A stretch of DNA of 64,000 bases from Marsupella aquatica (taxonomy: Eukaryota; Plantae; Marchantiophyta), in NCBI GenBank assembly GCA_973895155.1, contig OZ316893.1:17552770-17616769 (forward strand). Reading direction: 5' to 3'. The stretch's first letter is position 1, and each line of letters opens with the position of its first letter. Below are positions 1 to 50,222 of this stretch, piece after piece. The position numbers were made by a program, and so were the translations under genes. The notes under the pieces were generated by a model. It searched no databases. It saw only the letters and a program-made list of their open reading frames with translations, and was not told the origin of the DNA.

Positions 1-2636
1 TTAGGATAGGCGACTAAGTCGGGACCGGAAAATGACCCGACACCTGACATCTTATTTTTGGCTGATATTTCTCCCATGGGTGCTGGGAGGTCCCTAGGGA
101 TCCCTGAAAAAGTATGAAGTCAAGTGGGGTCTCAACCTAGGAGTTGAGTATTTTGACAGAAATTAAAATAACCAACTAGCGGGCCCTGGAGAAAATAGCC
201 AAGGGGTAAATTTTGTGGGTTCGAGGTTATAATTGAGTTTATTATAGACCATAATATCCCTGGATTGTCTCAGAAATAATTTGTCACCTTTTGTTACTTT
301 TTGGGAACACCTCAAAGATTGGGAATAGTAATGCACTTTAATAGATATGGTCAAACTTATGTATTTTTAGAAAAGTCGTTATGGAGTGTTTAGAGAGTTT
401 GATAAATTTAGGAGTGAGTCCTATGTCCAAGTATTCCAGAAATGTGCTCAGAAGTACGTTTGGACATTTGAGTGAATTATGGCATAGCCTTCAAGAGGGG
501 CCAGTATAACTGTTTCTCCTGAGAGGAAAACGAAATTTTTCTAAGTGTCAAAACGCGTCGACGTGGCTGCGACCAGACTAGCACGAGGTCAGGCAAGCAC
601 GACATGGGTAGGAATGCACGAGGTGGGCTAATTGAAGGGTTGGTGCTCATCAAAATAGGCCACTCTTGATCTGAATAGGCAGATGTGGGATTGAATTGAG
701 CTAGCTGTTGCTGAGAAGGACTTGACCCAGTTGCTACTGTGAAATTGAATTGTGAGCTATGGTTGCTGATTGGAATAGGGAGGCTGGCTTTGAATTGGGA
801 AGGTTGCTTGCTGCTATGGCAGCGGCACAATAGATTAGAGGTGCTGCTATTAATCAGGCATGAGATGCTCACGAGAATTGGCTGGCTGCTGCCTTGATGC
901 TGCTGAATTGATGGATGTTGCTGCTAGCTGCGAAATTGCAGAGGTGGGCAGCTACAAAATTGAGAAGAGAGACCTGTTTGGCTAAGTGATTGGAATGGAG
1001 CTAGTTGTTGAGAAGGAATCAAGCTATGGCTGCTGCTGCTGTGCTTTGAATCAGCTGCTATGCTTCGAATCTGCTGCTGTGTTGTTGTGCTGCAAGCTGC
1101 GAATTGGTGGGCTATGGCTGCTGCAAAATTCTGCTGCGATTTTGAATCACTTGCAAGGCTGGATGGCTATGGAGGTGGACTGAGAAGGGTGCTGTAGACC
1201 TGGCTGAGCTATCAATTGACCTGCTGTCATTCGATCCAATAGAGAATGTTGCCGTTTCAGATTGAATTCAAGAGAGAGGAAAATGCTGCAAAAATTGGTG
1301 TCCTTATCAATCTTCTTCATAAGAAACGTGAGTATAATGAGAGTACTCTCCCCTCATGACACGTGGAATCCCCATAAGGGGCGTGTAAGGTTCAAGTGTA
1401 ATCTGGTCGCCGCTTACACCCACTTTACACCAAAAACAGGCCTTGGGAGAATGGGCATAACTTTGGCTAGGGGTATCCGTTGGGGCCCAAATGTTTTTGT
1501 GCTGAGTTAGGGGAAGGTAAGGCACTCCTTGGTGAAAGTGGAAACCCAGAAAAATAATCACTCAAATATATTTTTAGCGGAGGCCACGAGGGGGTCCCCA
1601 TAGCTTGCAAACAGGAGTTGGCATGGGGGAAGTAAGACCAGGTTTTTAGGCCGACACTTCTTGCACCCGTGTCACCCAAGTTAGGATACATGGAGAAGAG
1701 AGTGCCTCAGGGTAAAGGTGCAAGGCCGTTAGGGTAAGGAAAGTAAGTTGATAGGTCGGGGTAGTAAGTAAGAACTAGTAAATAAGGAGCCAACTTTGAC
1801 ATGACACAACTTGAGACTCACTCACTCTTTTTGCAAGCTTTCAAGTGGGTTGGGAAGCTGGTGAGGAGGACCATAAGTGAGAGCAGGTTTGGAGGTCAAA
1901 GCATGCAACTCATGTGTGGCATATTCCAGGGCTTGGAAGGAGTCAAGCAATAGGTTGTAGAGTGAGCTACAAACTATAGAGTTGGACTTTGTGTATTAGG
2001 AGGACTTGGGGGAGGAGTAGTTGGACCCCAGGTCAAGCTTGGTGTGGTGTGGAAGGAGAATAGTATATAAGGAGAAAGTTTTTCTTTGTTAGGGACCGGG
2101 AGTCTCATCTCTTAAGTGGAATCTCTACCTTGCCAAGGTAGGGCTAAGCTTGAGAAGGGAGAGGTGGTCCATGCTTAGTGTGGAGAATGTGTAGTGAACT
2201 TTTGTTGTAAAGGTGAAGCAATAAAAGGAGACTTGCCAATCTTCATTGTGACCATTAAGTGTGAGTGCATTTGAAGCATATGAGAGCAAGAGAAGGCATG
2301 CTATGATGTAATCTTGGTCTAAGCTTGAAGGGGATGTGCTAGTACAAAACCAAGGCCAAGAGGCAAGGTTAAGGTAGAGCACTACTTTGAGACTTAGAGA
2401 GGATTATAGCTTGAGGGTGGAAAGTATTTTGCTTGGTGTGTGGTGTTAACAAGAAGTAAGAACAAGAGGAAGAGTCCTTAGATAGAGGAGCCTTCTCTAG
2501 AGCTCAAAGGGGATGTGTGGATGTGATGCCTAGACAGGAATCACTCGGCCGGTTAAGTGGGTAAAGCAGGAAGGCACCCTAGGAACACCTTAGTATAGGG
2601 ACAAAACAAGGAAAATATAAACAATTAGGGGCAACC

Positions 2637-5600
2637 ATGGAACCCGGGCCGAGGCCGGAGGTAAGGCTAAGGGTGAAAACCCGATTAGGGTTAGGGCGCG
2701 TTAAGCGTCGGCGGCTAGGAAGGATCAACGGGAAGAAGGACCGGCAGAGGAGAGGGGTAAGGAGCGCTTGCAGGAGATGGTGGCTCATTTGCGAGCACGA
2801 ACTAGGCAGACGACTACGGGAGGCCAACTACTGTCAGCTGCTTAGGCAAGCACTCGGGGAGAGAGTAGATACCGACGATCGACCTAAGGAGGGTATGAGC
2901 AACGTCAATCAAGCGGCACATTTCTGGGGATGCCTGTTCGAACGGGCAACTGAGTACATCAAGACTTACGAGGACGAGGAGTCAGAAAGGGCAGCTCGAG
3001 AACGGCAGGAGCTCGCTCGATTGTGGGAGCTGCAGAAGACGGCTTTCTTAGGAGGCGAACTCATCAAGGACGAGTTCCTGTGGACGCCTACTTCCAATCA
3101 ACTCGACGATCTTCTATTTTGCAAAGACAGCGTCGTCGGCATCCGAGAGGCCATCAAGAACTGCAACGACATACACTGGGAATTAAAGGGTAGCACGGAA
3201 AGGTGGACCCAGGCAACGGTGCTAGGAGAAACCTCCACGGCAGCAGAGATGAAGAGGAAGGGGGCCGTCAACGATGAAGCCACCCCGGCAAAAAGAACGA
3301 GGTCGGCGGCACCAAAGAGGCCAGCCGAGCAGCAGAGCAGGAGGCAGGGAGAAGCCGAAGAGGAGGAGGTCGATCCCATCAAGGCCATTCCAACCAGGGA
3401 TGACACCTGGAAGGGCTGGGCGGCAACCCTACCGGTGGAGGTGCAACTACATTTTGCACGGGAGGAGGATGCATGCTTTACGGCCATGCAGACCAAGAAG
3501 TACCAAGGCTTCATGGCCGGATCCGACTTGGAGGCCTTTGTAAGATTACCATGGCTGAAGCCGGAGGTACCGGAGTCAGACCTATTAGAATTCGTGGGGT
3601 CATGGGAACCCGAGACCAATTGCACGAGGATATATGGGAAGGATTTCTATCTTACTCCCAAGGTAATTGCCGAAGTGTTTGGCCTGCCGATAGGCAATAA
3701 GACCAAAGTTGATACCAGGAAGACCTTGCCTGACAAGGAGTTCCGGTCGTTCCCCGGGCCATCAACGAAGAATGGCTTCTTCCGGAACACCTGCACCAAC
3801 CCGCACATAGGAGAGATGATCGACTTCTTGCGGGTGACCATGCATTGTAACTTGCCGAGGGCAGAGATCGGCAAGGCACAGGTCTATCTGGCAGAAAGGC
3901 CAGACCCAAGCCGGGACTACAACGGGTACCTCCTCAACCAATTGAAGAAGATCTTAAAGGAGGAGCAGCAGGTAATCGGCATGGGGAGCGTGTCGCGGCT
4001 TGGCTATCACATGCCGCTGTTGTGCCGGTATGCCAGAGGTCAGACTTTTGCCCCGGTACTTCCCCTGCAGGTAAGGGCACCCGAGGAAGCTCCAACGCCG
4101 AGGCCGTTGGCTGAGAAGCCTCAACCACCTGTTAGTCCTACGATCGAGCAGGTGTTTAGGCCCAGGAAGGAAGACTTGCCGATGCAGCAACCAGGCATGC
4201 AGAGTCTGCTAAAACTACTGGAGAAAGAAAAGAAATCGGCATCGGCAACAACAACGGCAACGGCAACAATGCAGGACACTACTACAGAGGTAGGCCTACA
4301 CCGGCTCACAAGAGAAAACCCCTTTGCTGGAGACAAGGAGAGAATCAGGCCGGAATCCAAGCCAGGTGTTCGAATGTACGTGGGAACCTCAAGCTCCGAA
4401 TCTGAGGCAGAATTGCCTGAAGCTCCTACCGACGAAGAGGAGAGGGAGAAGCCGGACGTCCAAGAGGTAGAGGAGGCAGTGGAGGACTGCAGCCATGATA
4501 ATTCCGGCTATGGGTCGGACCATCACGTTCCAGGAGTAAGGACCTGTGGCCGGTTTGTCCCCACACTTCCAAGGGTAGTGCGAGGGGACCCCAACCAGCA
4601 GAGTAGCCCTGAGTCTCCCCCACCAGATGTTGCTCCCCCGAGCTTCGACGGCATAAAACAGACGGTGCAGGAATTTTAGGAGCGAATCAAGCAGGAGGAA
4701 GAGGCCGCCCTGGCTAAGGAAAAGGATTTACCAGGAGGAGATTGGCCGGAGGACATCAGGCGGCTAGCCGAAAAAGGAAGCAAACCTCTAGCCACGATTG
4801 AAGAGATCCGCAGGACGGCTTGGGAGCAGAGGCCACGATGGGCGATGCCGATCACTTCTACTTACTCCACCTACGCTAAGAATAGAGCCATGGAGTATGG
4901 TGAGATGTGTGGGGAACTTGCGCTCGGCATCTTTGGAGAGGAGTTGGAGGTAGGACCCTTTTTCCATAGGGAGCAGTTGGAGAAGCACCAATTAGAAGAA
5001 GCGGTGGCTTTAGAGAGAAGCAAGAAGGACGAGGTCATTCGGCGGCTTAGGAGGATGGAAGCCGAGATTGAAGATCTAAGGGCGGCCAAGAAAGCCCAAG
5101 ATGAACTGCGGATTAAACGACATGAGCTGAACATCATGCAGGGGCAGTTGGACACCGCGCAGGCTGATAATCAGAATATCAAGGATAAACTGACTCAGAC
5201 GCAGGAAGAGTTGGCCGACATGATCAAAGAGAGGGAGAAGTGGAAGCAAGAGCTGAAGAATACAGAGGAGGCCCACATAACAGCCAACAGCCGGGCCATG
5301 GCGGAGACCCAAAGAAAGGAATGGGCGTTGAAAGGGGAGCTCGAGAAAATCCGCGGAGCCCTTGAGCAGCAGGAGGTCGAGTTAGGGAAATCCTATCAAG
5401 GGATTATGGCGCTGCAGCAGGAGCTTGCGTCCCTGACGGCCAGCTTCAAGGCCGACCTAAGGGAGAAGGACGAGATGCTCGAACAGACTTACGCCAAGAT
5501 GAACCAGATGGAGTCTGTCATCATTGCAGAGCTCGACAAGGAGCTAAGAGCAACCCAGGAGGAGAGGGCTACCTTGAAGAAGGAATTGGAGGAAGCCCAC

Positions 5601-6278
5601 AGGGAGCAGGAGGAGGCCAAAAACGAGCTGGAGGGGGCACGTAAGGACCTGGATGAAACCCAAGAGGAGTTGGAGGAAATCACGAGGAAGATGGAGAACC
5701 TACAGCGGCGGGCCGACAACCAAACAGAGCGGCTGAAGAAACAAGCCGCAGTATTTAAATGCTTAGCTGCAGCAGGTCCATCTCCCGTTGGGACAAACCA
5801 GTTACCAGGGGTGGTAATTGCCGAAGGACAAGCCGCGTCAACTGCACCAGTGCCGGAAGTAAGTGGGAAGGGGAAGGGACCAGCTGCCGAGCCACCAACG
5901 AAGAAGAAGCGGAAACCTCCAGGGTCAAGGAGTAATACGACTTCACAGGCCGTGGTGATCAAGGAGGTAGACCCAGCACCGACCCCAGACAGGGTCACGG
6001 CTAAGGATCCAACTACCCTAGGGGAAGGGGAGGCCGAAGCCGTGGGAGTGGCCGAAGCCGAGGGAGTGGCTGAAGCCGAAGCCGTGGGAGTGGCTGAGGC
6101 CGAAGCCGTGGGTATTGCCGAGGCCGGTGTCGAGGCTGAAGCCGAAGGTGGACCCAGTCAGGCCGATGGAGAGTTGACTCGGTCAAGGGCAGGTAATCTG
6201 TCAGTAGGCGGGCCAACGGCAGTGGCTGAGGAGGAAGTGTTGGGGGCGTCCATTGAGGATCCACCACCGGTGTCGTGA
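2637..6278 (+). pseudogene. Family A protein (PMD/Athila-ORF-like domain, long coiled coil, EAEAVG repeats) broken by one premature stop
   Basis: ORFs 2637-4679 and 4845-6278 are one frame; TAG at 4677-4679 is CAG in the intact 1191-aa copy at 17668-21243. The true start may be Met at 2895. Confidence 0.85.
6030..6147 (+). repeat. Coding minisatellite (GAGGCCGAAGCCGTGGGAGTGGCC-like units, EAEAVGVA)
   Basis: Copy 1 has 66 bp (22 aa) more of this repeat than copy 2. Confidence 0.85.
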
Positions 6279-7574
6279 CGGTGCAAGGGCGCCGTTCCTT
6301 TTAGGGAGGGCGGAAGTGGAGGGAGGAGGCGTGAGTGGGCAGGGCGGGCGCGGATCTCCACGTTTAGGATTAGGATCAGAACCAGGAGCGGCCCTGACAC
6401 TTAGCTTAGTGGGATTGCGGTCCCACTGGTAGGAGCAACACTTGTGCTCCTGCCTTGCTGTACATAGGTAGATTCGGGCAAGTAGATTACTGTCAGGTAG
6501 ATTAGGCTTACGATGCAAAGAATGGCGGATCCACTACCAGGATAAGTACCTGGGCAGCGGGGAGCTCAGGGCCTCTTCTTTAGCAAGTTTTTAGTTTGCA
6601 CCAGCCGGGCTGGGATCAAGTAGTACGAGAAGCTCTCGGTTAGTCATACAGTGACCCTTGTGTATATTCATGTTTCCTCATGCCTAAGAGCTGAATAGAG
6701 TTGGCCTCACGGCTTAGTTCGCAGAACTTGTGTATGAGATGTACTGTTTGTATGGCAAGTGCATGGTATGACTCAGTCAGAATGAGTCATTTTGCTATTT
6801 GTGTGTCGCATTAACTTGTGTGAAGAGTGCCCACATCAACAGAAGGAAGGAAAGTAAGTAGGGGAGTGAGAGTTGGATGTGTCGAGCTGAGAGAGGTCTT
6901 AGCGGCTTAACCAAGCCTATTGGGGATCATTCCGGCGGCGGAATCCAAACATACCTAACAAGACGGAGGGGAAGACAGGGGAAGACAGGGGAAGGCCTAT
7001 ATTAGGCCGGCTACGTATCTCATGACCCGATGAAGGATCTGTCCAGTATATGTGTGTAAAATGTTAATAGTAGTAGTAGAAGGTTAGCAGCGTCCCATGC
7101 CGCTAAGCCGCGGAAACGGCCTCGCCAAGCACGAAACCTGCGGGAATCGGCTTGAGCTGGGGGGTTTCTTGGGTTTAGGGAGCCATGGGACGCACCACAG
7201 TGGACCCAAACCAAGGCCAGGGGGAAAGGTTGAGGGGTAACACTACTTTGAGGGTCTTGAGGAGACTTAAGCTTGAAGAGGAAAGTACTTTGGTTCTTGG
7301 GTGTTTGTGTGAGAATCTACTCTAAGGTGACAGCTTGGAGCGGAGATCCCCCTTGCTGATCCTTGGGGTAGAGGAGAGGGGAAGGGTGTGAGTACAAAAG
7401 TAGTCAAGGGGACTACCTCTCTAGAAGTGGAGAGTTGAAACTACTTATGTATGGAGTGATTAGACATTGTAGGCACATTTCAGAAATTTTGTCAATCCTT
7501 TGTGACCCTGGTATGATATGGAGCAGGTATTAGGTAGTCTTTTGGGGAGAAAAGCCGCTTAAGCTCCTTGACAA

Positions 7575-14949: not shown

Positions 14950-15138
14950 TGTTAGAATACACTTAACCCTAACTCATAGAGTGATACAAAGGGGTATATA
15001 GGGACTAGATATAGAGAGTCATGAGACTAGGAGAAGGTAGTTATAACCATCCAATGTGTAACACCTTATAAGCCACATTGGCTCATGAAAAGATTATCCT
15101 TGTGTTGTTGGTGTATGAACTATAGCCATCGTCTAACA
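14950..15138 (+). repeat. 5' LTR (189 bp)
   Basis: Identical to the 3' LTR except for one 25-bp indel. Confidence 0.96.
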
Positions 15139-15151
15139 CGTTATCAGCACG
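15139..15151 (+). promoter_or_regulatory. Primer-binding site, Bianca type (internal tRNA-Met half)
   Basis: CGTTATCAGCACG directly after the 5' LTR, without the usual TGG start. Confidence 0.8.
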
Positions 15152-15312
15152 TTTTATGCCCTTCAACCTCCTCGAGCTTATTATTATTATTTTTTCCTCC
15201 TTCTCCCTTCGATAACTTCCAATTGTCATCGACAATTCTTCATCGCCCGCACCCTGATTTACATAGATCAAGACCAATCCCCCAGGGCTACTAGACTTTA
15301 ATTAACCCGACG

Positions 15313-16757
15313 ATGACAACCTTGGAGAAGCTCCAATTCCCGTCACTCGTAATAGACGGCGAGAATTACTTATCTTGGGCACAGAATGCCGAAATCGTTC
15401 TCAACATGAAAGGCCTTGGCGATATTTTATTGGGGGACAATTACGGAACATTACAGGAGAAGGCCCAGGCCCTGTACATTATCCGCCATCACCTAGATGC
15501 TGATTTACAACTTGAATACCTCACAGAGTATAACCCGAGAACCCTCTGGGATGCTCTAAAATTGAGGTTCGATCACCTCCGCCTAATCTCCCTCCCAGCC
15601 GCTCGCAACGAATGGATCCATCTAAGAGTCCTAGATTACCCGACTATCGCAAAATATAATAGCGCCCTCTTCCGTATAACTGCTCAACTCGCAACATGTG
15701 GAGAACCCATCAACGAGGCAGCCAAGATCGAAAAAACACTCTCCACATTCTCTGCAATGAATATGCAATTATCACAGATTTACCGACAACGCCACTTCAC
15801 CCAATTCTCTGATCTAATTGTAGTTATGCTCCTGGCTGAGAAGAACGATCTCCTTCTCCTTAAGAACTCCCGAGAAAGACCACCAGGTACGCTACCAAGG
15901 ACTGAAACCCAATTCACGAGTACCAACAGAGGTAATCCCTCTTACAAAGGCAAAAATGGCCCTCTTAGAAGAAATACGGGCCGCTTCAAAAGATTTAATT
16001 GGAGACGCCAAGCACGCATGGACAACGGCACCACACAGCCAACCACGAATCCTTGGCAACGCAAGCCAAATTATACTCAAAACATACCTGCACACATCAC
16101 ACCCACAAAGAATCAGGCTAAGTGTTTCCGTTGTGGCGGACCTGGTCATATCAGAAAGAACTGTAAAGCCCAATCCCACCTGGTCAAACTATACCAGGCC
16201 TCTCTGCAAACCACGAACACGGCCATAGCTGCAAACCACCTTGAGATTGATGAAGACCTCTCACAATACACACTTGCAATGCCCCCACCAGAGATACACA
16301 TGGTATTACAGGGAAAGAACCCCAACTCACCCTCCGACATCGATACCTGCATCCTCGACAGTGGCACCTCCCACATAATATTAAAAGATAAACAATACTT
16401 TCAGTACATATCCCCATCCAATAGACCTGTGACCACCATTACAGGTATAAACCAATTAGAGGAAGGACACGGACCCGCTGAACTCACCCTCCCGAATGGC
16501 ACAATTATTCAAATCCAATCTGCCATCTATGCCCCATCCGCAACTAGAAATCTACTCAGCTTCCACGATATTCGCCAAAACAACCTCCACATTCGTTCTG
16601 CACCTGACCACCAAGTAGACGCTTTGCAGATCTTTCAGGAAACTGATACTGGCCCAATCATACTAGAGACCTCACCACTTCTTCCCCCTGGAGTATACGC
16701 CACCAAAATCACAACTTATCATTCACAGGCCCAACCCTTATCACCCACACAACTATG
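15313..16757 (+). CDS. gag-pol: Copia Gag-protease part of the polyprotein, interrupted by an insertion just before the integrase zinc-binding motif
   Basis: NYLSWA, LWDALKLRFDH, zinc knuckle CFRCGGPGHIRKNC, protease ILDSGTSH; ...SPTQL|WHFRLGHPG is rejoined at 21362. Confidence 0.93.
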
Positions 16758-19700
16758 TGTGGTGCGTCCCATGGCTCCCTAAACCCAAGAAACCCCCCAG
16801 CTCAAGCCGATTCCCGCAGGTTTCGTGCTTGGCGAGGCCGTTTCCGCGGCTTAGCGGCATGGGACGCTGCTAACCTTCTACTACTACTATTAATATTTTA
16901 CACACATATACTGGACAGATCCTTCATCGGGTCATGAGATACGTAGCCGGCCTAATATAGGCCTTCCCCTGTCTTCCCCTCCGTCTTGTTAGGTATGTTT
17001 GGATTCCGCCGCCGGAATGATCCCCAATAGGCTTGGTTAAGCCGCTAAGACCTCTCTCAGCTCGACACATCCAACTCTCACTCCCCTACTTACTTTCCTT
17101 CCTTCTGTTGATGTGGGCACTCTTCACACAAGTTAATGCGACACACAAATAGCAAAATGACTCATTCTGACTGAGTCATACCATGCACTTGCCATACAAA
17201 CAGTACATCTCATACACAAGTTCTGCGAACTAAGCCGTGAGGCCAACTCTATTCAGCTCTTAGGCATGAGGAAACATGAATATACACAAGGGTCACTGTA
17301 TGACTAACCGAGAGCTTCTCGTACTACTTGATCCCAGCCCGGCTGGTGCAAACTAAAAACTTGCTAAAGAAGAGGCCCTGAGCTCCCCGCTGCCCGGTAC
17401 TTATCCTGGTAGTGGATCCGCCATTCTTTGCATCGTAAGCCTAATCTACTTAACAGTAATCTACTTGCCCAAATCTACCTATGTACAGCAAGGCAGGAGC
17501 ACAAGTGTTGCTCCTACCAGTGGGACCGCAATCCCACTAAGCTAAGTGTCAGGGCCGCTCCTGGTTCTGATCCTAATCCTAAACGTGGAGATCCGCGCCC
17601 GCCCTGCCCACTCACGCCTCCTCCCTCCACGTTCGCCCTCCCTAAAAGGAACGGCGCCCTTGCACCGTCATGACACCGGTGGTGGATCCTTAATGGACGC
17701 CCCCAACGCTTCCTCCTCAGCCACTGCCGTAGGTTCATTCTCTGACAGATTACCTGCCCTTGACTGAGTCAACTCTCCATCGGCCTGACTGGGTCCACCT
17801 TCGGCTTCAGCCTCGACACCGGCCTCGGCAATACCCACGGCTTCGGCCTCCCCTTCCCCTAGGGTAGTTGGATCCCTAGCCGTGACCCTGTCTGGGGTCG
17901 GTGCTGGGTCTACCTCCTTGATCACCACGGCCTGTGAAGTCGTATTACTCCTTGACCCTGAAGGTTTCCGCTTCTTCTTCGTTGGTGGCTCGGCAGCTGG
18001 TCCCTTCCCCTTCCCACTTACTTCCGGCACTGGTGCAGGTGGCGCGGCTTGTCCTTCGGCAATTACCACCCGTGGTAACTGGTTTGTCCCAACGGGAGAT
18101 GGACCTGCTGCAGCTAAGCATTTAAATACTGCGGCTTGTTTCTTCAGCCGCTCTGTTTGGTTGTCGGCCCACCGCTGTAGGTTCTCCATCTTCCTCGTAA
18201 TTTCCTCCAACTCCTCTTGGGTTTCATCCAGGTCCTTACGTGCCCCCTCCAGCTCGTTTTTGGCCTCCTCCTGCTCCCTGTGGGCTTCCTCCAATTCCTT
18301 CTTCAAGGTAGCCCTCTCCTCCTGGGTTGCTCTTAGCTCCTTGTCGAGCTCTGCAATGATGACAGACTCCATCTGGTTCATCTTGGCGTAAGTCTGTTCG
18401 AGCATCTCGTCCTTCTCCCTTAGGTCGGCCTTGAAGCTGACCGTCAGGGACGCAAGCTCCTGCTGCAGCGCCATAATCCCTTGATAGGATTTCCCTAACT
18501 CGACCTCCTTCTGCTCAAGGGCTCCGCGGATTTTCTTGAGCTCCCCTTTCAACGCCCATTCCTTTCTTTGGGTCTCCGCCATGGCCCGGCTGTTGGCTGT
18601 TATGTGGGCCTCCTCTGTATTCTTCAGCTCTTGCTTCCACTTCTCCCTCTCTTTGATCGTGTCGGCCAACTCTTCCTGCGTCTGAGTCAGTTTATCCTTG
18701 ATATTCTGATTATCAGCCTGCGCGGTGTCCAACTGCCCCTGCATGATGTTCAGCTCATGTTGTTTAATCCGCAGTTCATCTTGGGCTTTCTTGGCCGCCC
18801 TTAGATCTTCAATCTCGGCTTCCATCCTCCTAAGCCGCCGAATGACCTCGTCCTTCTTGCTTCTCTCTAAAGCCACCGCTTCTTCTAATTGGTGCTTCTC
18901 CAACTGCTCCCTATGGAAAAAGGGTCCTACCTCCAACTCCTCTCCAAAGATGCCGAGCGCAAGTTCCCCACACATCTCACCATACTCCATGGCTCTATTC
19001 TTAGCGTAGGTGGAGTAAGTAGAAGTGATCGGCATCGCCCATCGTGGCCTCTGCTCCCAAGCCGTCCTGCGGATCTCTTCAATCGTGGCTAGAGGTTTGC
19101 TTCCTTTTTCGGCTAGCCGCCTGATGTCCTCCGGCCAATCTCCTCCTGGTAAATCCTTTTCCTTAGCCAGGGCGGCCTCCTCCTCCTGCTTGATTCGCTC
19201 CTGAAATTCCTGCACCGTCTGTTTTATGCCGTCGAAGCTCGGGGGAGCAACATCTGGTGGGGGAGACTCAGGGCTACTCTGCTGGTTGGGGTCCCCTCGC
19301 ACTACCCTTGGAAGTGTGGGGACAAACCGGCCACAGGTCCTTACTCCTGGAACGTGATGGTCCGACCCATAGCCGGAATTATCATGGCTGCAGTCCTCCA
19401 CTGCCTCCTCTACCTCTTGGACGTCCGGCTTCTCCCTCTCCTCTTCGTCGGTAGGAGCTTCAGGCAATTCTGCCTCAGATTCGGAGCTTGAGGTTCCCAC
19501 GTACATTCGAACACCTGGCTTGGATTCCGGCCTGATTCTCTCCTTGTCTCCAGCAAAGGGGTTTTCTCTTGTGAGCCGGTGTAGGCCTACCTCTGTAGTA
19601 GTGTCCTGCATTGTTGCCGTTGCCGTTGTTGTTGCCGATGCCGATTTCTTTTCTTTCTCCAGTAGTTTTAGCAGACTCTGCATGCCTGGTTGCTGCATCG

Positions 19701-21358
19701 GCAAGTCTTCCTTCCTGGGCCTAAACACCTGCTCGATCGTAGGACTAACAGGTGGTTGAGGCTTCTCAGCCAACGGCCTCGGCGTTGGAGCTTCCTCCGG
19801 TGCCCTTACCTGCAGGGGAAGTACCGGGGCAAAAGTCTGACTTCTGGCATACCGGCACAACAGCGGCATGTGATAGCCAAGCCGCGACACGCTCCCCATG
19901 CCGATTACCTGCTGCTCCTCCTTTAAGATCTTCTTCAATTGGTTGAGGAGGTACCCGTTGTAGTCCCGGCTTGGGTCTGGCCTTTCTGCCAGATAGACCT
20001 GTGCCTTGCCGATCTCTGCCCTCGGCAAGTTACAATGCATGGTCACCCGCAAGAAGTCGATCATCTCTCCTATGTGCGGGTTGGTGCAGGTGTTCCGGAA
20101 GAAGCCATTCTTCGTTGATGGCCCGGGGAACGACCGGAACTCCTTGTCAGGCAAGGTCTTCCTGGTATCAACTTTGGTCTTATTGCCTATCGGCAAGCCA
20201 AACACTTCGGCAATTACCTTGGGAGTAAGATAGAAATCCTTCCCATATATCCTCGTGCAATTGGTCTCGGGTTCCCATGACCCCACGAATTCTAATAGGT
20301 CTGACTCCGGTACCTCCGGCTTCAGCCATGGTAATCTTACAAAGGCCTCCAAGCCGGATCCGGCCATGAAGCCTTGGTACTTCTTGGTCTGCATGGCCGT
20401 AAAGCATGCATCCTCCTCCCGTGCAAAATGTAGTTGCACCTCCACCGGTAGGGTTGCCGCCCAGCCCTTCCAGGTGTCATCCCTGGTTGGAATGGCCTTG
20501 ATGGGATCGACCTCCTCCTCTTCGGCTTCTCCCTGCCTCCTGCTCTGCTGCTCGGCTGGCCTCTTTGGTGCCGCCGACCTCGTTCTTTTTGCCGGGGTGG
20601 CTTCATCGTTGACGGCCCCCTTCCTCTTCATCTCTGCTGCCGTGGAGGTTTCTCCTAGCACCGTTGCCTGGGTCCACCTTTCCGTGCTACCCTTTAATTC
20701 CCAGTGTATGTCGTTGCAGTTCTTGATGGCCTCTCGGATGCCGACGACGCTGTCTTTGCAAAACAGAAGATCGTCGAGTTGATTGGAAGTAGGCGTCCAT
20801 AGGAACTCGTCCTTGATGAGTTCGCCTCCTAAGAAAGCCGTCTTCTGCAGCTCCCACAATCGAGCGAGCTCCTGCCGTTCTCGAGCTGCCCTTTCTGACT
20901 CCTCGTCCTCGTAAGTCTTGATGTACTCAGTTGCCCGTTCGAACAGGCATCCCCAGAAATGTGCCGCTTGATTGACGTTGCTCATACCCTCCTTAGGTCG
21001 ATCGTCGGTATCTATTCTCTCCCCGAGTGCTTGCCTAAGCAGCTGACAATAGTTGGCCTCCCGTAGTCGTCTGCCTAGTTCGTGCTCGCAAATGAGCCAC
21101 CATCTCCTGCAAGCGCTCCTTACCCCTCTCCTCTGCCGGTCCTTCTTCCCGTTGATCCTTCCTAGCCGCCGACGCTTAACGCGCCCTAACCCTAATCGGG
21201 TTTTCACCCTCAGCCTTACCTCCGGCCTCTGCCCGGGTTCCATGGTTGCCCCTAATTGTTTATATTTTCCTTGTTTTGTCCCTATACTAAGGTGTTCCTA
21301 GGGTGCCTTCCTGCTTTACCCACTTAACTGGCCGAGTGATTCCTGTCTAGGCATCACA
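16758..21358 (-). mobile_element. Family A TG...CA single-ORF element, copy 2 (4601 bp), ORF intact
   Basis: TGTGGTGC...GCATCACA; 5-bp TSD CTATG at 16753-16757 and 21359-21363, splitting copia codons CTA-TGG (L-W). Confidence 0.95.
17668..21243 (-). CDS. 1191-aa Family A protein: PMD/Athila-ORF(Transposase_32)-like domain, acidic linker, ~290-aa coiled coil, NLS-like KKKRK
   Basis: Uninterrupted ORF with LPW..EFV..TR..LT..IAEVFGLP motif; no gag, protease, RT, RNase H, integrase or DDE motifs. Confidence 0.85.
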   Translation of the reverse strand: MEPGQRPEVRLRVKTRLGLGRVKRRRLGRINGKKDRQRRGVRSACRRWWLICEHELGRRLREANYCQLLRQALGERIDTDDRPKEGMSNVNQAAHFWGCLFERATEYIKTYEDEESERAARERQELARLWELQKTAFLGGELIKDEFLWTPTSNQLDDLLFCKDSVVGIREAIKNCNDIHWELKGSTERWTQATVLGETSTAAEMKRKGAVNDEATPAKRTRSAAPKRPAEQQSRRQGEAEEEEVDPIKAIPTRDDTWKGWAATLPVEVQLHFAREEDACFTAMQTKKYQGFMAGSGLEAFVRLPWLKPEVPESDLLEFVGSWEPETNCTRIYGKDFYLTPKVIAEVFGLPIGNKTKVDTRKTLPDKEFRSFPGPSTKNGFFRNTCTNPHIGEMIDFLRVTMHCNLPRAEIGKAQVYLAERPDPSRDYNGYLLNQLKKILKEEQQVIGMGSVSRLGYHMPLLCRYARSQTFAPVLPLQVRAPEEAPTPRPLAEKPQPPVSPTIEQVFRPRKEDLPMQQPGMQSLLKLLEKEKKSASATTTATATMQDTTTEVGLHRLTRENPFAGDKERIRPESKPGVRMYVGTSSSESEAELPEAPTDEEEREKPDVQEVEEAVEDCSHDNSGYGSDHHVPGVRTCGRFVPTLPRVVRGDPNQQSSPESPPPDVAPPSFDGIKQTVQEFQERIKQEEEAALAKEKDLPGGDWPEDIRRLAEKGSKPLATIEEIRRTAWEQRPRWAMPITSTYSTYAKNRAMEYGEMCGELALGIFGEELEVGPFFHREQLEKHQLEEAVALERSKKDEVIRRLRRMEAEIEDLRAAKKAQDELRIKQHELNIMQGQLDTAQADNQNIKDKLTQTQEELADTIKEREKWKQELKNTEEAHITANSRAMAETQRKEWALKGELKKIRGALEQKEVELGKSYQGIMALQQELASLTVSFKADLREKDEMLEQTYAKMNQMESVIIAELDKELRATQEERATLKKELEEAHREQEEAKNELEGARKDLDETQEELEEITRKMENLQRWADNQTERLKKQAAVFKCLAAAGPSPVGTNQLPRVVIAEGQAAPPAPVPEVSGKGKGPAAEPPTKKKRKPSGSRSNTTSQAVVIKEVDPAPTPDRVTARDPTTLGEGEAEAVGIAEAGVEAEAEGGPSQADGELTQSRAGNLSENEPTAVAEEEALGASIKDPPPVS

Positions 21359-21361
21359 CTA

Positions 21362-24300: not shown

Positions 24301-24569
24301 AAGAAGTCCTCACCAAACCAACAATCATCTACGAAGATAACAGACCCTGCATTGACCAAATTACTAAAGGATTTATCAAGGGAGATCGAATTAAGCACAT
24401 AGCACCTAAATTCTTCCATACACATGAACAGCACGGCGATCAGATTAACGTTCAATGGATACCTTCTAAAGACAATCGCGCTGATCTATTCACGAAGCCC
24501 TTACCTCGTGTCCTGCACGAAGCACATTCGACAGGAATCGGCCTACGCAAACTCTCAGATTTTCCCTAG
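21362..24569 (+). pseudogene. pol: Copia integrase-RT-RNase H with a frameshift near 23795
   Basis: WHFRLGHPG, CIPC, VDVCGP, IDNAGEF, YKARLVARG, YGLKQSGR, YVDD, ADAGY, SSNHAE, YEDN, ADLFTK. The integrase catalytic E appears as K (QNGAAKA). Confidence 0.93.
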
Positions 24570-24839
24570 TACCTAAATGCTCTTGACTACTCATTTCAGG
24601 CATTATTATTACGATCACTCTAAACCCATAATACCTGGTAGAATGGCACATTACTACTTAGCATATACTCAGTCCCCTCAACTTAACGAACTTATTACAT
24701 GTAAGACAGTGATACTCTTTTTACCCCAAAGAAGAAAGCAGGGGGTTTTTAATGAGATCATGTCGTTTATAAGTTCTAATATACCCTGATTTAGGATTAA
24801 CTCTATTCTATAGAATGGTTACTTTCTATTGAAGTAACC

Positions 24840-24848
24840 AAGGGGGAG
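24840..24848 (+). promoter_or_regulatory. Polypurine tract
   Basis: AAGGGGGAG directly before the 3' LTR. Confidence 0.9.
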
Positions 24849-25012
24849 TGTTAGAATACACTTAACCCTAACTCATAGAGTGATACAAAGGGGTATATAG
24901 GGACTAGATATAGAGAGTCATGAGACTAGGAGAAGGTAGTTATAAGCCACATTGGCTCATGAAAAGATTATCCTTGTGTTGTTGGTGTATGAACTATAGC
25001 CATCGTCTAACA
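24849..25012 (+). repeat. 3' LTR (164 bp)
   Basis: Lacks CCATCCAATGTGTAACACCTTATAA relative to the 5' LTR. Confidence 0.96.
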
Positions 25013-35764: not shown

Positions 35765-38700
35765 TGTCACGTCATCAGCCTTGGCCTTAACTCGGGCTTT
35801 AGCTTTAAACGGGCACCTCCTTCGTAAATATGAGGGTTCGGGCAGGGAGGGAAGCGCGTAATGCACCTAATTCACGTAAACTAGCGCTAAGTGCGCCTAC
35901 TATTAGATACGGACATCTCCTAGGTATGGTTTATGTTCCGCCGCCGGAACGTACCTTAGTCGATAACAAGATCGACCCCGGCTTAAGGACTTCTAAGCCT
36001 TCGTGTTGTCCGCCTTTGATCCGAATTCAATGATACAGGTCCTCAACCCGTGCTCGCAACCACATACCCGCAAGCTGCACCCCGTGCACAACTCGGGTAG
36101 TGCGTTCGGCCCGGTATTGCCACCTATACACGAGATTCACACACACATACACGCGTACAAGCATACAATCTCGATTTACACGAAGGAAATAATGGGAAAG
36201 GATTTTACTACATAGGGGACATGTGCGTACACTTGGTTGACCCGACAGCTCCGGAATGAACAGATTCAAGGCCGAGAGAGTATACTACAATGGAGCCCGG
36301 CTCCGCACTCACCCGACGAGCTTAGTCCTACCCCCTCCCCTTGGTACTCTTTCACTCCCAGAGGTCGGGACTCCCCGCGCATACCACGGATGTCCAACTC
36401 TGAGACTAAAACCCCCCCTTGCCTCTACCGAGGGGTGCACTAAATACTAAGGGCCGGGGAACGGAGTGTCCTCCCGACCGAAGATTCGCTGACTTAGGTC
36501 CTAACTAATCTAACTGTTAGGCCAAAAAACGGCTGTGTCTTATTAGAAGATCCTAATCTACGCAGGCTGGACAGCATGGCAGTGCTGTTGTAACTAAGGC
36601 AGGTGCCTATCCCAAGAGCCTGACTTAGCTACTCCTAACCCTATTCTATTCCTACTCTGCCGCTAATGCCTGGTACGCTTGCCAGAGCCGCCCGAGTGGG
36701 AGCGGCCATCCCGCTGCTTACGAAGTCTGTCGTTGTTTGCCTTGAGGAGCTGGACCTGGTCCAGCAAAGATTCATTCTCTCGCTTCGCCGCGTCTGTCCC
36801 CTTCGCTGCCTCCTGGCATGCCTCCTCCAGCTGCTGGGCGTCGCTCGTCAGCTTGCCCGCCAGCTGGTCCTGCTTCTCGGCTTTGGTTTGGAGCCGTGCC
36901 ACTTTGGCCTGTAGCAACTACCTTTACTGCGGCAACTAACTCCTGATTGAAGAAACAGGCTACCTTCCGGGCCATGAACTCCCCGGTATCCCAGGCAATT
37001 TGATGAGAGAAATCTCCCAAAAGCCCGTTCAGAAATGTACCCGGTACGAAGAGTTCCGGGTGGTCCAGGTTGTGCCTGTCCGGAGTTGGGCACGGGCAGA
37101 CGTCAACACGCGCAGGGGCCGGGGCAGTGACATCCAGCCCTGGGGACGTAATGTTGGAAGGGGCTGGAGTGTCCTCCTGCAACAATGTCCGGTTCTCCGG
37201 AATAGCCATCGGTGGGTCTTTCGGAGACCCAGGCTCGAGTAAGACCTCCGCTGTACCGACTTCTGTACTTAGCCCGGCCTGTTGGATCGCATCAACGGTT
37301 GCGATAACCGACCCATCCGGTACCTCCTTGGTTACGACTACAACTACTTGTGGAGGTGGGGTGGGTGAAGCTTGCGTCTCCGCTGGACTTCGGGCCTCGG
37401 GTTGGGGCCGTCTCTCCAAGGCCGGAAAAACCCACCTAGCTGGGACCAGCTTTGTAATGTTGACACGGGGAAGGGTTCGTCGATCAAACCGAGCGTACCA
37501 CTCAAGAATGATCTCGATGTGGCTAGCGAAATACGCCTTCCCGCCAATGTACAGCGTCTTCCTTCGCCGCTCCATCTCTTCATGGAATTTCTTAGCAAAG
37601 TACGACGCCCACTTCCTAGGTCAATAGTTCTTGACCTGGATAACCTGGGCGGCGGAGATCTCCCCCCGGGGTTCCATCATGTGGAGGGCGTACCTTTGGA
37701 ACTCCAGTCACTCAGCTATCTCGGGGATGAGGCAGGTCCTCATCACGAACCCGTTGTCCACTGCTCCTTCTGAGGGAAAACTCGAGGATTGGTACTTGGC
37801 TCCCTTGCCCCCGGGAGCCCGTGATTCGACTCGATGGTCACCTTCGGGTAATCCGAAGATCATCTTGAGCCGTTCTTCCGTGAGGGACATATTCCTTCCC
37901 CGCAGCCGAGTATGCTGACGTGCGTCATCATAATTCTTGACGAATTCTGTCATGTCCTCCCCGTAGTACCTGCAAGTGTTCCAGGGCAGAGCGGCGAGGT
38001 GCTCGAATCCCTGAGTCTTCAGGTACACCACATGCTTGGGATGGAGGATGTTCTTATGCACGTTTTCCCCCATGCGGTGCATTGTCACCTTGGCCACGGC
38101 TACCGTGGCCAATGGTAACCCGGATGCAGTGGCGGGTTCCTTCCTCTTCTTCCCCCGTGACTGGCTCGGGGAAGGTGACACCTCCCTATCCTCTCGATCG
38201 GGCATAGGTAGTGCTACCGCCGTTAGTATTGGTCCCGGGGCGGCCACGGTCACCGTGTTGTCTACTGGAGCCGCTCCTTGGGTCCGAGCATGGGGAGGGG
38301 ACGATGTAGTGTTGGCCCCCTGAGTGTTTGCTCCTCTGGGCTGCCTGAGCAAGGGTGGGGTAGCCTCATCATTGTCGCTAAGGTCCACAGCGTTGATGAC
38401 GGAGCGTACTTGTACTGCTGGCGGGGCGATCGGCGGTGGGGGTTGGCTAGGCTGAGGCTGAGACTGAAGCTGAGCCTGAAGTTGAGCCTGAGCTTGAGTC
38501 TGCGTTGGTACGGGTACGGGTATGGGGTCCACTGGGCTGGCGCCGGTGTTTGCGGGTCTAGTTCCCATGAAGCTCTGCAGGTGCTGGTAGAAGTTCTCCG
38601 AAGCAAGTGCGGACAACCTTGTCAAACGGGTAGTGCTGGACTCGCTGTTGATGATAGCCCGAACCTGAGCAGGGATGTCGTTGCAAGTCGATCGTACCCG

Positions 38701-39465
38701 GGATATTGAAGACCTCGTCCGGAAGCCAAAGCAATGCTTCCCAGAAACCGATATATTTGTCTCCGTTGAAGAAGTACCCAGATACCTCTACTGGTCGGTA
38801 AAGCTCGCTCTGAGATGGGTAGTCAAAGTTAAGGATGTAGTGGTGTCGTCCTACTAGGCGGATGGCTCTCTCGTACTCGCGTTCGATTTCGTATCGGTGC
38901 GGGTTGGCGTGTTTCAATGAGTCGGCCAAGTGCCTTCCGGTAGATAGGAACTGCGTCCTGAATCGAATGGCCGAACTGGAGAGGATCGTGTGCGACATTT
39001 AGAGGAGATAGTAGTGGCGACTTAGAGCGAACGAGAGAGCTAGGGTCGAAGCTGGCGCGTGGACTGATGGACTGGTGCACTCCAAAGGGTCGGCTCCCTT
39101 TTTATACCTTGAGGGCTTGTCGATCCCCCGACATCTCCTCGTTGCCTATAGGCTGAACCGTTCACGCTTGTAGTGTACTGGCCACTCCGCCGGTCTGAGT
39201 CATCGCGTGTCAGTGGACGCCTCCCAAAGTTCGTTATACGGACCCGAGGGAGGGGCCCCTCCACGCTCATAACCCGGGCTTGCAAATGGCAATGCGCCGC
39301 CAGCCCGAACATGAATTACCCTTATTGACTAATGATTTCCTACTCATAATGGCTACCTAAATATTGTCGTTATGCTAATCATAGCGGCCTAAGATACTCC
39401 TAACGCGCGTGCTAGGCACGGTTTAGACCGAATTACTCATTACTCGCCGTACTGGCGGCGTCACA
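35765..39465 (-). mobile_element. Family B TG...CA single-ORF element, copy 1 (3701 bp)
   Basis: TGTCACGTC...GGCGTCACA; 5-bp TSD CGTGG at 35760-35764 and 39466-39470; homologous to 46241-50222. Confidence 0.92.
36663..38998 (-). pseudogene. Family B protein (Pro/Gln-rich, PMD/Athila-ORF-like domain, coiled coil), frameshifted and internally deleted
   Basis: ORF pieces 38558-38998, 37708-38625, 36772-37575, 36663-36917; LAALPW..EFVKNY..TRLRG..IFGLPEG..NGFVMRTC. Confidence 0.85.
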
Positions 39466-46100: not shown

Positions 46101-46240
46101 AATTCATCTCTAATCTGATTGACCACTTCCCACTATCGCCTTCTACAACAATTCTTTGTGCAACACTCAACCTGGAAGACAACATCAATGGATTTTCGAG
46201 TCTTCTTTCTGTTATGCCTTCTATGAATCTTCTTCCTTTC

Positions 46241-49200
46241 TATGACGCTGTCGGTACGGTGGGTAATGAGTGATTCGGCCTAATAATGCTTAGCACGCGC
46301 GTTAGGGGTATCTTAGGCCATAATTATTAGCGTAATGACAGTATTTAGGTAGCCATTATGAGTAGGAAATCATTAGTCAATAAGGGGTATTCATGTTTGG
46401 GCTGGCGGTGGGTTGCCATTTGCACGCCCGGGTTGCGAGCGTGTAATGGGCCCCCTTCCCCCCTCCCTCGGGTCCATATAATGAACTCCGGGAGGCGGCC
46501 ACTAACACGCGCTGACCCAGACCGGCGGAGTGGCCGGTACACTACAAGCGTGAAAGGCTCGGCCTATAAGCGACGAGGAGGCGTTGGGCAACCGACAAGC
46601 TCTCACGGTATAAAACGGGGGCCGATCCTTTGCAGTGCACCAGTTCTTCAGTTCACGCGCCAGCTTTGACCCCAATTCTCTCGCTCAGCCTTAGTCGCCG
46701 TCTATCTCCTGTGAATGTCGCACACAAAACTTTCCAATTTGGCCATACGATTCTGGACGCAGTTCTCGTCTATCGAAGGGCACTTGGCCAACTCATTAAA
46801 ACACGCAACCCGCACCAATACAAAATCGAGCGCGAGTACGAGAGGGCCATCCGCCTAGCAGGCCACCACCACTATCTCCTTAACTTTGATTACCCATCCC
46901 AGAGCGAGCTTTACCAACCCAAAGAAATATCAGGATACTTCTTTGACAGAGGAAAATACATCATTTTTTGGGAGGCACTGCTTCGGCTTCCGGACACGGT
47001 CTTCACTATCCCGAGCACGATCGACTTACAGTGGCTCCACTTCAACCACATCCCCGCTCGGGTCCAGGACATCATCAACAACGAGTCCAGCACTACCCGG
47101 TCGACAAGGGCGTCTACACTTACTTTGGAAAATCTCTACCGGCACCTGCAAAACTTCATGGGAACTAGACCATCAACCACCGGTGCCGGCCCAGTCGAGC
47201 CCATGCCCGTACCTGCACCAACATCGACTCAGGCTCAGGCTCAGCCTAGCCGATCCCCACCGCCGGTCGCCCTGACAGTACAAGTATGCTCCGTCGTCAA
47301 CACTGTGGACCTCAGCGACGACGACGAGGATACCCCACCCCTTCTCAGGCGGCCCAGAGGAGCGAGCACCCAGGGAGTCGGCACTACATCGCCCCCTCCC
47401 CAAGCCCAAACCCGAGTAGTAGCTCTGGTGGACAACACGGTGACCGTAGTCGCCCCGGCCCCAATACTAACGGTGATGGCTCTACCCATACCCAACCGGG
47501 AGGATGGCGAGATGTCAACCTCTCCGAGCCATCCCGGGAGCCAGTCTCGGGGAAAGAAGAGGAAGGAACCCGTAGTTATATCCGGGTTAACCATGGCCAC
47601 GGTAGCCGCAACCAAGGTGACAATGCACCGCATGGGGGAGAACGTGCATAAGAACATCCTCCACCCCAAACATGCGGTGTACTTGAGGACTCAGGGGTTC
47701 GAGCACCTCGCCTTGTTCCCATGGAACACCTACAGATACTACGGGGAGGACATGATGGAGTTCGTCAAGAATTATGACGACGTCTGTCAGTAGACTCGGC
47801 TACGAGGGAGGAATATGTCCCTCACAGAGGAGCGGCTCAGGATGATCTTTGGGCTACCCGAGGGAGATCAACGAGTCAAATCACGGGCTCCCGGGGGCAA
47901 AGGAGCCAAGTACCAATCCTCAAGTTTTCCCTTCGAGAGGTCAGTGGACAACGGGTTTGTGATGAGGACTTGCCTCATCCCCGAGATAGCCGAGTGGCTG
48001 GAGTTCTAGAGGTACGCCCTCCACATGATGGAACCCTGGGCAAGATCCCCGTTGCCCAGGTTATTCAGGTCGAGAACTATCGACCTAGGAAGTGGGCATC
48101 GTACTTTGCTAAGAAGTTCCATGAAGAGATGGAACGGCAAAGGAAGGCGCTCTACATTGGCGGGAAGGCATATTTTGCAAGCCACATCGAGATCATTCTC
48201 GAGTGGTACGCCCGGTTCGATCGACGAACCCTTCCCCGGACCAACGTAACTAAGTTGGTTCCAACTAAGTGGATCTTCCCGGCCTTGGAGAGACGGTCTC
48301 AACCCGAGGCCCAAAGTCTGGCGGCGACGCAGGCCTCACCCATCCCACCTCCACAAGTAGTGGTAGCTGTGGCCGAAGAGGTACCGGAAGAGGCAGTGAT
48401 CGCAACCTTAGACGCGATCAACCAGGTCGGGCCGAGTGCAGAAGTCGGGGCGATGGAGGCCTTGCCCGAGCCCGAGGGTCCAAAAGACCCACCAGTGGCT
48501 ATTCCATAGGACAGCCCGATGGTGGAGGAGGACACTCCAGCCCCTTCTAACACTACATCCCCAGGGCTGGATGTCACTACCCCGGCTCCCACGCGAGTTA
48601 ACGTCTACCCGTGCCCAACTCCGGACGGGCACAACCTGGACCACCCAGAACTCTTTGTATCGGGTACAATTCTAAACGGGCTGTTAGGAGATTTCTCCCA
48701 ACAAATTGCCCGAGATACCGGGGAGTTCATGGCCCGGAAGGTAGCCTAATTCTTCAACCAGGAGTTGGTTACCGCTGTAAAGGCCGGCCGGGCCCAGTTG
48801 GAGGCCCTTTAGAGGATAGAGCGGTACCGGGTTGAGTCCGTGTACCTAAAGGACAAAGTTGCAGCTCAAGAGGCTGAGCTTCTACAACTACAACCCAAGG
48901 TTGCAACCGCCGATGAGTTGTTAGCAGAGCCGCGCGCCCTTACCGTCTTAGCCGAACAGGCCAAAGCTGGGAAGGAGGCCGAGATTGCACGGCTCCAGAG
49001 CCAGGTTGACAGTTTGAAGAACTAAACTATCACCTGGCTGAAAGACCTGGAGGAGGCCGAAGAGCGAGCCCAGCGTGACACTACGGAGATTGCCGCCCTG
49101 CAGGCCGAAGTGGCACGGCTTCAAACCGAAGCCGAGAAACAGACCCAGATGGTGGACAAGCTGACAAGCAACTGGAAGAGGCATGCTAGGAGGCAGTTGA

Positions 49201-50222
49201 GGAGACGAACGCGGCAAAGCAAGAGAATGAATCTCTACTAGACCAAGTCCAGCTCCTCAAGATGGACAACGACAGACTCCGTAGGCAGCGGGATGGCCGC
49301 TCCCACTCGGACGGCTCTGGCAAGCACACCAGGCATTAGCGGAGAGTTAGGCTTAGAATAGAACTAGGAGTAGCTAAAACAGGCTGTTAGGACAAGTGCC
49401 GGCCAGAAGATAGCGGCGCTGACACATTAGCCAGCCTGTGTAGAATAGGTTAAACTAATAGGACAAGCCGTAACCAGGTTAGCGAGGATATAAGTTAGCG
49501 TAGATTTGGGCACGAGGCCAGGCTGGTCCTCAGCCCTTAGTATTTAGTAGCCCCCCGATAGAGGCACGGGGGGGGGGGATTTTTAGACTCAGAAGTTGAC
49601 CATTCGCGGTACACACGGGGAGTCCCAAACTTGGTGAAGTGTCGGAGTGCCAAGGGGAGGGTATACGACTAAGCTCGCCGGGTGAGTGCGGAGCCGGGCT
49701 CCGTTGTAGTGTATACTCCTTGGCCTTGGACCCGTTCATTCACGAGGTGTCGGGTCACCCAATCGTAAGTGTATGATCAAAGATGAATAAAATCCTTTCC
49801 CATCAATTCCTTCGTGTAAATCAAGATTTCTGCTTATGTATGAATGCATGTATAAGTCTCGTGTGCAAGTATCAGTGTCGGGCCGAACACGTCATGCCAA
49901 ACGTGCACGGGGTGCAGGTTACGGGTACGGGGTTGCGAGCCCTGGTTGAGCACTTGTACTAATGGATCTAGATCGAAGGCAGTAACACAAAGGCTTAGAA
50001 GTCCGTAAGCCGGGATTGACCTCGTGTCGACTAAGGTACGTTCCGGCGGCGGAACACAAAGCATACCTAAGCGTGCTTGTAAGTAAATGTATGCGCACTT
50101 AGCGCTAGTTTGGGAGAATTATACGCACACCGCACGTCCCCCCTACCCAAACCCAAATACTAACAAGGGAAGTGTCCGTCTTAGACGTAAATAGGCCTAA
50201 GGATTAGGCCAACGGCGTGACA
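46241..50222 (+). mobile_element. Family B TG...CA single-ORF element, copy 2 (3982 bp; first TG mutated to TA)
   Basis: TATGACGC...GGCGTGACA; 5-bp TSD CTTTC at 46236-46240 and 50223-50227. Confidence 0.92.
46715..49339 (+). pseudogene. Family B protein, full span but with many stops and frameshifts
   Basis: ATG at 46715 downstream of TATA-like TATAAAA near 46609; ORF pieces 46630-47793, 47815-48009, 47970-48509, 48519-48749, 48840-49025. Confidence 0.85.

Follow-up and report, generated by a model that had tools for sequence, protein, structure and literature searches.

Gene-bearing insertions in a liverwort contig as likely solo long terminal repeats with a predicted VANC-like product

The sag gene of mouse mammary tumor virus (MMTV) and the nef gene of human immunodeficiency virus (HIV) lie in the retroviral long terminal repeat (LTR), where they take up ~0.6–1 kb of U3 and are expressed by splicing or from internal promoters. 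Solo LTRs are usually treated as non-coding scars. LTRs of Athila/Tat (OTA) elements reach ~5 kb (PMC6317226), and the rice Retrosat2, RIRE3 and RIRE8 elements, with LTRs of >3 kb, are present as 429 solos vs. 162 full copies (PMC3485330). The extra open reading frames (ORFs) of plant LTR retrotransposons have been described from the internal region (PMC7264820; likewise PMC6317226 and PMC11728184). Here we describe four gene-bearing insertions in a 64,000-nucleotide stretch of the liverwort Marsupella aquatica (contig OZ316893.1 of assembly GCA_973895155.1, positions 17,552,770 to 17,616,769; the whole stretch is referred to as the window). Most likely, in our reading, they are solo LTRs derived from a pair of Ty3/gypsy families that probably belong to the Athila/Tat type and whose LTR gene would encode a predicted anti-silencing DNA binder with a VANC fold; the balance of the evidence tips slightly in favor of this chain taken as a whole.

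Element 1 (2522..7199, + strand, 4,678 bp) and element 2 (16758..21358, − strand, 4,601 bp) make up family A, and element 3 (35765..39465, − strand, 3,701 bp) and element 4 (46241..50222, + strand, 3,982 bp) make up family B. An earlier note on this DNA had given these coordinates together with 5-bp target-site duplications (TSDs); the coordinates are exact, and the TSDs GTGGA (2517-2521 / 7200-7204), CTATG, CGTGG and CTTTC, in the order of the elements, are perfect in all four cases. The TG...CA ends that the note had assigned to every copy are found in elements 1–3, while element 4 has TA...CA. Short imperfect inverted termini of 8–9 bp, also claimed, are borne out by comparison of the outer 9 bp with their reverse complement, which agree at 7/9 positions in elements 1–3 and at 6/9 in element 4. 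Nor are there terminal direct repeats, again as the note had said: none was found in elements 2–4 by repeat search or in element 1 by self-BLAST of the window. Since each element has its own TSD, none is the partner LTR of another. As a control for chance, perfect 5-bp flanking repeats occurred at 472 of the 437,573 TG..CA pairs spaced 3.5–5 kb apart in the window (0.1%).

The two copies of each family lie in opposite orientation. Elements 1 and 2 differ by 43 mismatches over 4,601 aligned bases (99% identity), and their alignment ends exactly at both termini, fixing the boundaries by homology and independently of the TSDs. Elements 3 and 4 are 75–82% identical. The DNA of the two families, which the note had called diverged, is nearly unalignable apart from one ~30-bp motif. 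Element 2 sits inside the gag-pol region of a Ty1/copia element, and its empty site (joint 16751>21358) was found in sequencing runs X1 and X2. Of the 17 listed sequencing runs, five were aligned to the elements; runs that shared few words with them, air metagenomes among these, were left out. No RNA data set was among those listed, an absence that has no bearing on expression. Coverage of element 3 by run X8 was too low for its ends to be seen. In X1 and X2, summed contig depth was 1.7e5–1.3e6 inside element 2 and 0.9–3.4e3 in the flanking bins, with ~100- to 1,000-fold steps at both termini; within element 3 it was 4e4–4.8e5 in X2, against ~4e3 in the flanks. Summed contig depth is not copy number, and the contigs merge identical junctions and so yield no solo-to-full ratio. 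Elements 2 and 3 are coherent high-copy repeats in several organisms.

Each element contains one long gene of 2.3–3.6 kb, which occupies 63–78% of the unit; this much of the earlier description stands, although the gene is intact in element 2 alone and broken in elements 1, 3 and 4. In family A the element 1 gene (2637..6278, +) is cut short by a stop at codon 681 (4677-4679), whereas that of element 2 (17668..21243, −) is an intact ORF of 1,191 codons. Its likely start, judged from sequence, is Met87 at 20985; on visual inspection, the N-terminal F-W motif that follows Met87 can be aligned with family B and with relatives P0006 and P0031. The family B gene is broken in element 3 (36663..38998, −) by stops and frameshifts as well as by a 14-nt gap and the loss of ~310 bp, and in element 4 (46715..49339, +) by several stops and frameshifts. 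Both families share a domain of ~200 residues (28% identity, E 4e-18), located at 19804..20496 (−, residues 250-480) in element 2 and at 37408..38100 (−) in element 3. A long heptad-patterned, coiled-coil-like region follows in element 2 at 18124..18876 (−, about residues 790-1040), as suggested by the sequence, by 21-nt periodic repeats and by a weak Pfam match to ATG16 (E 0.008). The family proteins also carry the basic patches KKKRK and KKRK, which resemble nuclear signals. In agreement with the note, a Pfam scan of the element ORFs gave no retrotransposon domain (gag, protease, reverse transcriptase, RNase H or integrase) and no transposase domain. In element 1, an 18-bp coding repeat is expanded close to the gene end (6032-6147), and the non-coding 3′ portion contains a 15-bp x 2.7 repeat (6466-6504).

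Comparison of elements 3 and 4 gave a ratio of non-synonymous to synonymous substitution (dN/dS) of 0.14 over the 226 codons of the core domain, a sign of purifying selection, and of 0.29 over 529 codons of the main frame, against 1.1 and 1.6 in the shifted frames. Of 103 codons compared in frame in the N-terminal region, 19 showed synonymous and 25 non-synonymous changes. Because dN/dS is low in frame and not in the shifted frames, we conclude that selection acted on the gene during the spread of the family. Between elements 1 and 2, 10 codons differ synonymously and 17 non-synonymously, with no sign of constraint on single solo copies.

Candidate expression signals accompany the gene; TATAAA, AATAAA and TGTA are consensus matches only and are no proof of transcription. 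TATAAA lies 95 bp inside the end of element 2 (21259..21264, −) and at the same place in element 1; in element 3 it is 360 bp inside the end and ~100 bp ahead of the ATG (39101..39106, −), and the element 4 counterpart is at position 369 (46609-46614, +). Past the stop codon of element 2 is a TGTA-rich stretch (17159..17358, −; 4 TGTA per 200 bp vs. an element mean of 0.39) that resembles a plant 3′-end-processing region and may act as one. The corresponding region of element 4 has an AATAAA (49786..49791, +), of which element 3 has a variant in the equivalent position. The ~30-bp motif shared by the families, TTCCGGCGGCGGAA...CATACCTA, is the best DNA match between A and B (E 2e-4) and lies 180–260 bp from the 3′ end, at 16989..17017 (−) in element 2, 35921..35949 (−) in element 3 and 50041..50070 (+) in element 4. 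We rejected a ribozyme reading of this motif, as it folds no better than shuffles (z −0.1 to −1.2). Its CATACCT half (16989-16995, 35921-35927 and 50063-50069) reads as the splice-donor-like AGGTATG on the opposite strand.

The best structural match of the predicted core domain was VANC21 (PDB 9LNK/9LNJ), over ~210 residues at 7–10% identity, and the domains of both families are predicted to have a VANC21-like fold. Sequence homology to VANC was not seen: a profile of domain alignment A2 retrieved no PDB chain at E <= 10, and by sequence, as by host element, the proteins stand outside the VANC family. A profile search with the core domain found 68 proteins among 1.84 billion. Twenty of these relatives were looked up, namely eight from Calypogeia fissa, one from Riccia sorocarpa and 11 without an organism label, a distribution that points to a liverwort as the probable host. 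A Pfam scan of 34 relatives returned four matches to Transposase_32 (PF20167) below the cut-off and two weak ones to the Harbinger-type DDE_Tnp_4, and the Atlas leads for the domain were a Transposase_32 cluster (cosine 0.89) and an ATHILA cluster (cosine 0.87). A further profile search gave seven proteins, five of them with PF20167, from a query alignment that already held three PF20167 rows. The element proteins themselves had no Pfam match to PF20167, PF03078 or PF10536. Searches elsewhere were negative. The viral structure library held no credible match, and neither the complete family A protein nor a family B alignment, the latter compared with longer proteins, drew a match in word-indexed protein searches. 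Metagenome scans gave no match to the ~30-bp motif and 106 pattern matches to domain alignment A3, none confirmed; among viral contigs, none of four family A domain matches was confirmed, and the N-terminal domain of ~110 residues had no usable Atlas match. Within the window, the 290-codon ORF at 29314-30186 (−) bears a faint likeness to the core domain by eye, unsupported by BLASTP or hhalign, and was rejected as a relative.

Evidence on the parents of these insertions comes from junction contigs, which give only 30 letters past the element ends, a reach that falls short of gag-pol. The note had reported neither a primer-binding site (PBS) nor a polypurine tract (PPT). That holds at the four loci and fails for some sister copies elsewhere, where family A shows a PBS and family B a purine-rich upstream flank. 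At the 3′ end of element 2 (in gene sense), 37 contigs of X2 leave into other DNA with an agreement of 0.37, a low value of the kind expected from many insertion sites. Starting four bases past CA, their majority letters match TGGCGCTAGAAGGAGGG at 13/17 positions, a level reached by 0/20,000 shuffles with a free offset and by 0/100,000 with a fixed one. At the same offset, three contigs of X3 matched at 10/17 (194/100,000 shuffles) and three of X6 at 7/17, which is not significant. A simulation with six PBS-bearing contigs among 37 produced an agreement of 0.366 and a match of 13.6/17. We take TGGCGCTAGAAGGAGGG to be the PBS for the 3′ end of tRNA-Asn; among the PBS motifs compared, those for Met, Asp, Lys and Arg fail to fit X2, and the Asn-type motif fits. 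Two points weigh on the other side. The motif was chosen after X2 had been seen, and when the test is restricted to a 12-mer with family-wise correction, the X2 result is reached by 1,161/20,000 shuffles.

The first 12 bases of TGGCGCTAGAAGGAGGG are the complement of primer iPBS2083 (PMC3561071), and all 17 are the complement of a CCA-ended plant small RNA listed as a microRNA (PMC8747174). Athila, TatII and Retand are given a tRNA-Asn PBS in PMC6317226, and Tat lineages are present in liverworts (PMC10508981, PMC13468544, PMC12885004). The pairing of a non-Met tRNA primer with a 5-bp TSD, as in OTA elements, is found here. Beside all four loci the PBS motif is absent, and the one match elsewhere in the window, with three mismatches, is at chance level; Rfam families and tRNA genes were likewise not detected in the window. 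Viral contigs gave two matches to the motif, one a chance match in a phage (L001) and one without tRNAs (L002). For family B, seven X3 contigs at the 5′ end agree at 0.56, compared with 0.457 +/- 0.02 for unrelated flanks, and show a short, PPT-like purine run right before TG. The family B 3′ end at 35765 was not represented among the best 24 of 839 loose ends, and at the family A 5′ end one X6 contig extends 106 letters past. From these flanks, with gag-pol outside their reach, we consider it very probable that the parents had paired LTRs. Of the two alternatives in the note, the first, long protein-coding LTRs left as solos, thus draws support from the PBS after some family A copies and the purine-rich flank before some family B copies.

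Such a parent, arranged as LTR-PBS-(gag-pol)-PPT-LTR, would integrate with a 5-bp TSD. Recombination between its two multi-kb LTRs would delete the interior and leave one LTR that keeps promoter, gene and 3′ signals, and each LTR, paired or solo, could produce its own mRNA. The protein would enter the nucleus by way of its basic patches, oligomerize through the coiled coil, bind non-coding DNA of its own family and relieve that family of silencing in trans, much as VANC acts on VANDAL. Because family B has one TATA box, upstream of the gene, we favor placing the gene in a very long R region; an R region of ~3 kb would require read-through of the poly(A) site of the 5′ LTR. Possibly the gene instead forms part of U3 and is served by a second promoter, in which case an upstream shift of the PPT would have captured a 3′ accessory gene of the Athila type. 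A search of the non-coding DNA of the elements for dense target motifs in one orientation, as in VANC systems, gave no 6-8-mer above shuffles; TTAG was enriched ~2.3-fold in the three of three elements checked (post hoc).

A wider proposal is offered tentatively, and we doubt it more than we believe it. Liverwort Athila/Tat-type elements may have moved a VANC-fold anti-silencing gene into the LTR as a full transcription unit, so that LTR-LTR recombination, the chief route by which the host deletes such elements, would leave many stand-alone anti-silencing genes acting in trans on the full-length copies that survive. VANC, the Transposase_32/Athila accessory proteins and MAIN would then represent one old fold that predates the dicots and is common to DNA transposons and retrotransposons.

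The strongest rival, which we rate as unlikely, keeps the gene-bearing solo LTRs and gives the protein another job: it might scaffold particles, target integration or, in the manner of MAIN or plant mobile domain proteins, bring about self-limiting silencing. Fold likeness alone reveals no function, VANC itself resembles the silencing factor MAIN (PMC13547354), the weak DDE_Tnp_4 matches in two of the 34 relatives imply that the domain serves several transposon classes, and functions of plant additional ORFs are unknown according to PMC7264820. Against this, a single structure with this fold has been solved, and it is that of an anti-silencing factor bound to DNA in a sequence-specific way; moreover, the proteins are built like VANC as described, from a core domain, low-complexity linkers that vary and a coiled coil.

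A second rival, which we think quite improbable, makes the parents non-autonomous, with LTR, PBS, short interior, PPT and LTR but no pol, like a large retrotransposon derivative (LARD), so that a helper Athila/Tat element copies them and the LTR gene is the only gene. It is in keeping with the absence of gypsy pol from the window, the solo state of all four insertions and the 30-letter reach of the junction data, too short for gag-pol. Nothing speaks directly against it, but it calls for a compatible helper for each of two families whose DNA cannot be aligned beyond the 30-bp motif.

The weakest rival, the second alternative of the note, holds that a helper integrase copies and inserts units that never had LTRs, or that the units are a new kind of DNA transposon. 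In its favor, each of the four window copies is a single unit flanked by a TSD, the junction contigs at the element 2 3′ end are for the most part mutually unrelated (agreement 0.37) and domain relatives occur with DDE transposase fragments. We disfavor it as highly improbable, because sister copies adjoin a PBS right behind the 3′ CA or share a purine-rich flank before the 5′ TG, both predicted by paired LTRs and not by a free unit, because the elements contain no integrase, transposase or long inverted repeat, and because established retroelement biology offers no route to regenerate both ends from RNA without a PBS. Two known classes were also rejected. Ginger and Polinton elements, integrase-type DNA transposons, are defined by long inverted repeats at their termini and by a DDE integrase that they encode themselves, and a Pfam scan of the ORFs and a repeat search found neither of these, nor a transposase, in the elements. 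Terminal-repeat retrotransposons in miniature (TRIMs) and LARDs combine terminal direct repeats with a lack of coding capacity, whereas our elements are without such repeats and have a gene under selection.

The Ty1/copia host of element 2 (14950..25012, +) has LTRs at 14950-15138 and 24849-25012 and the TSD CGCAT, and its pol halves are in frame across the insertion. It looks young, with LTRs of 165–190 bp that differ by a 25-bp indel and a non-Met PBS, and is presumably Bianca-like. Repeat copies at 31360-34601 and 60107-63510 are 68–74% identical and each has an ORF weakly matching N6/N4 DNA methyltransferases (33611-34258, E 0.0018; 62634-63167, E 5.6e-5; bacterial DpnA, E 3e-4), so that this repeat possibly carries a transposon-borne, bacterial-type methyltransferase. 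Liverworts have an N4-methylcytosine (4mC) methyltransferase. At 7572-12905 (+), ORFs without a Pfam match look like a decayed DNA transposon with cysteine-rich and DDE-like stretches; part of this region (7665-8212) has a 74% copy at 59416-59951. ORFs at 54610-58315 (−), also without a Pfam match, end in a SWIM-like zinc-finger pattern and suggest a Mutator-like transposase. Tandem arrays are present at 41198-41549 (111 bp x 3.2) and 61465-61671 (43 bp x 4.8).

These very abundant units would go unclassified in any annotation pipeline that relies on paired LTRs or pol domains. Should plant LTRs be able to house a selected gene of 2–3.6 kb, a family is not disarmed when its copies are reduced to solos. 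For the long-unexplained Transposase_32/Athila-type accessory ORFs, the likeness in fold suggests a concrete and testable function, namely sequence-specific chromatin control, and the intact copy in element 2 makes a direct test possible. If the prediction is true, VANC-type anti-silencing extends from DNA transposons of dicots to retrotransposons of early land plants. We found no published description of an ORF inside a plant LTR or of a VANC-like retrotransposon protein in a search that did not extend to the VANC21 structure paper (PMID 41260640), the large element table of REXdb, Repbase, GyDB or subscription journals, where one may exist. That plant LTRs can be long and non-coding, and that solos can be numerous, was already known; what is probably new is the gene-bearing giant LTR of probable Athila/Tat elements, with its predicted VANC-like product.

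As far as the available descriptions go, the insertions resemble solos of long-LTR plant Ty3/gypsy elements in their TG...CA ends, short imperfect inverted ends, 5-bp TSD, multi-kb size and a non-Met tRNA PBS as in OTA. They differ in that the extra ORF of those elements is described outside the LTR (Retrosat2 has its ORF0 ahead of gag-pol), and the descriptions available give the long LTRs no coding role. With the plant additional ORFs (the Athila ORF/Transposase_32, the antisense ORFs of Retand and Grande, and the plant mobile domain of Ogre) the element gene shares the character of a family-wide accessory gene under selection, with basic patches and a coiled coil, and a distant link to Transposase_32 (PF20167) runs through relatives of the element proteins. 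Those ORFs are described as internal and are lost on solo formation, whereas the element gene survives in the solo. Like MMTV sag and HIV nef, it would lie within the LTR and therefore be present twice per element and be kept in solos; unlike them, it is 3–4 times larger, has a TATA box upstream within the LTR and is unrelated in sequence. In common with VANC of the Mutator-like Arabidopsis VANDAL elements, the product is transposon-encoded and has a conserved core, variable linkers and a coiled coil (PMC5735166). It departs from VANC in that identity is 7–10%, that neither a sequence-profile match nor tandem target arrays were found, and that its anti-silencing activity is predicted. Its gene sits in the likely LTR of a bryophyte retrotransposon with no VANDAL transposase, whereas VANC is described, in the text available, as dicot-specific.
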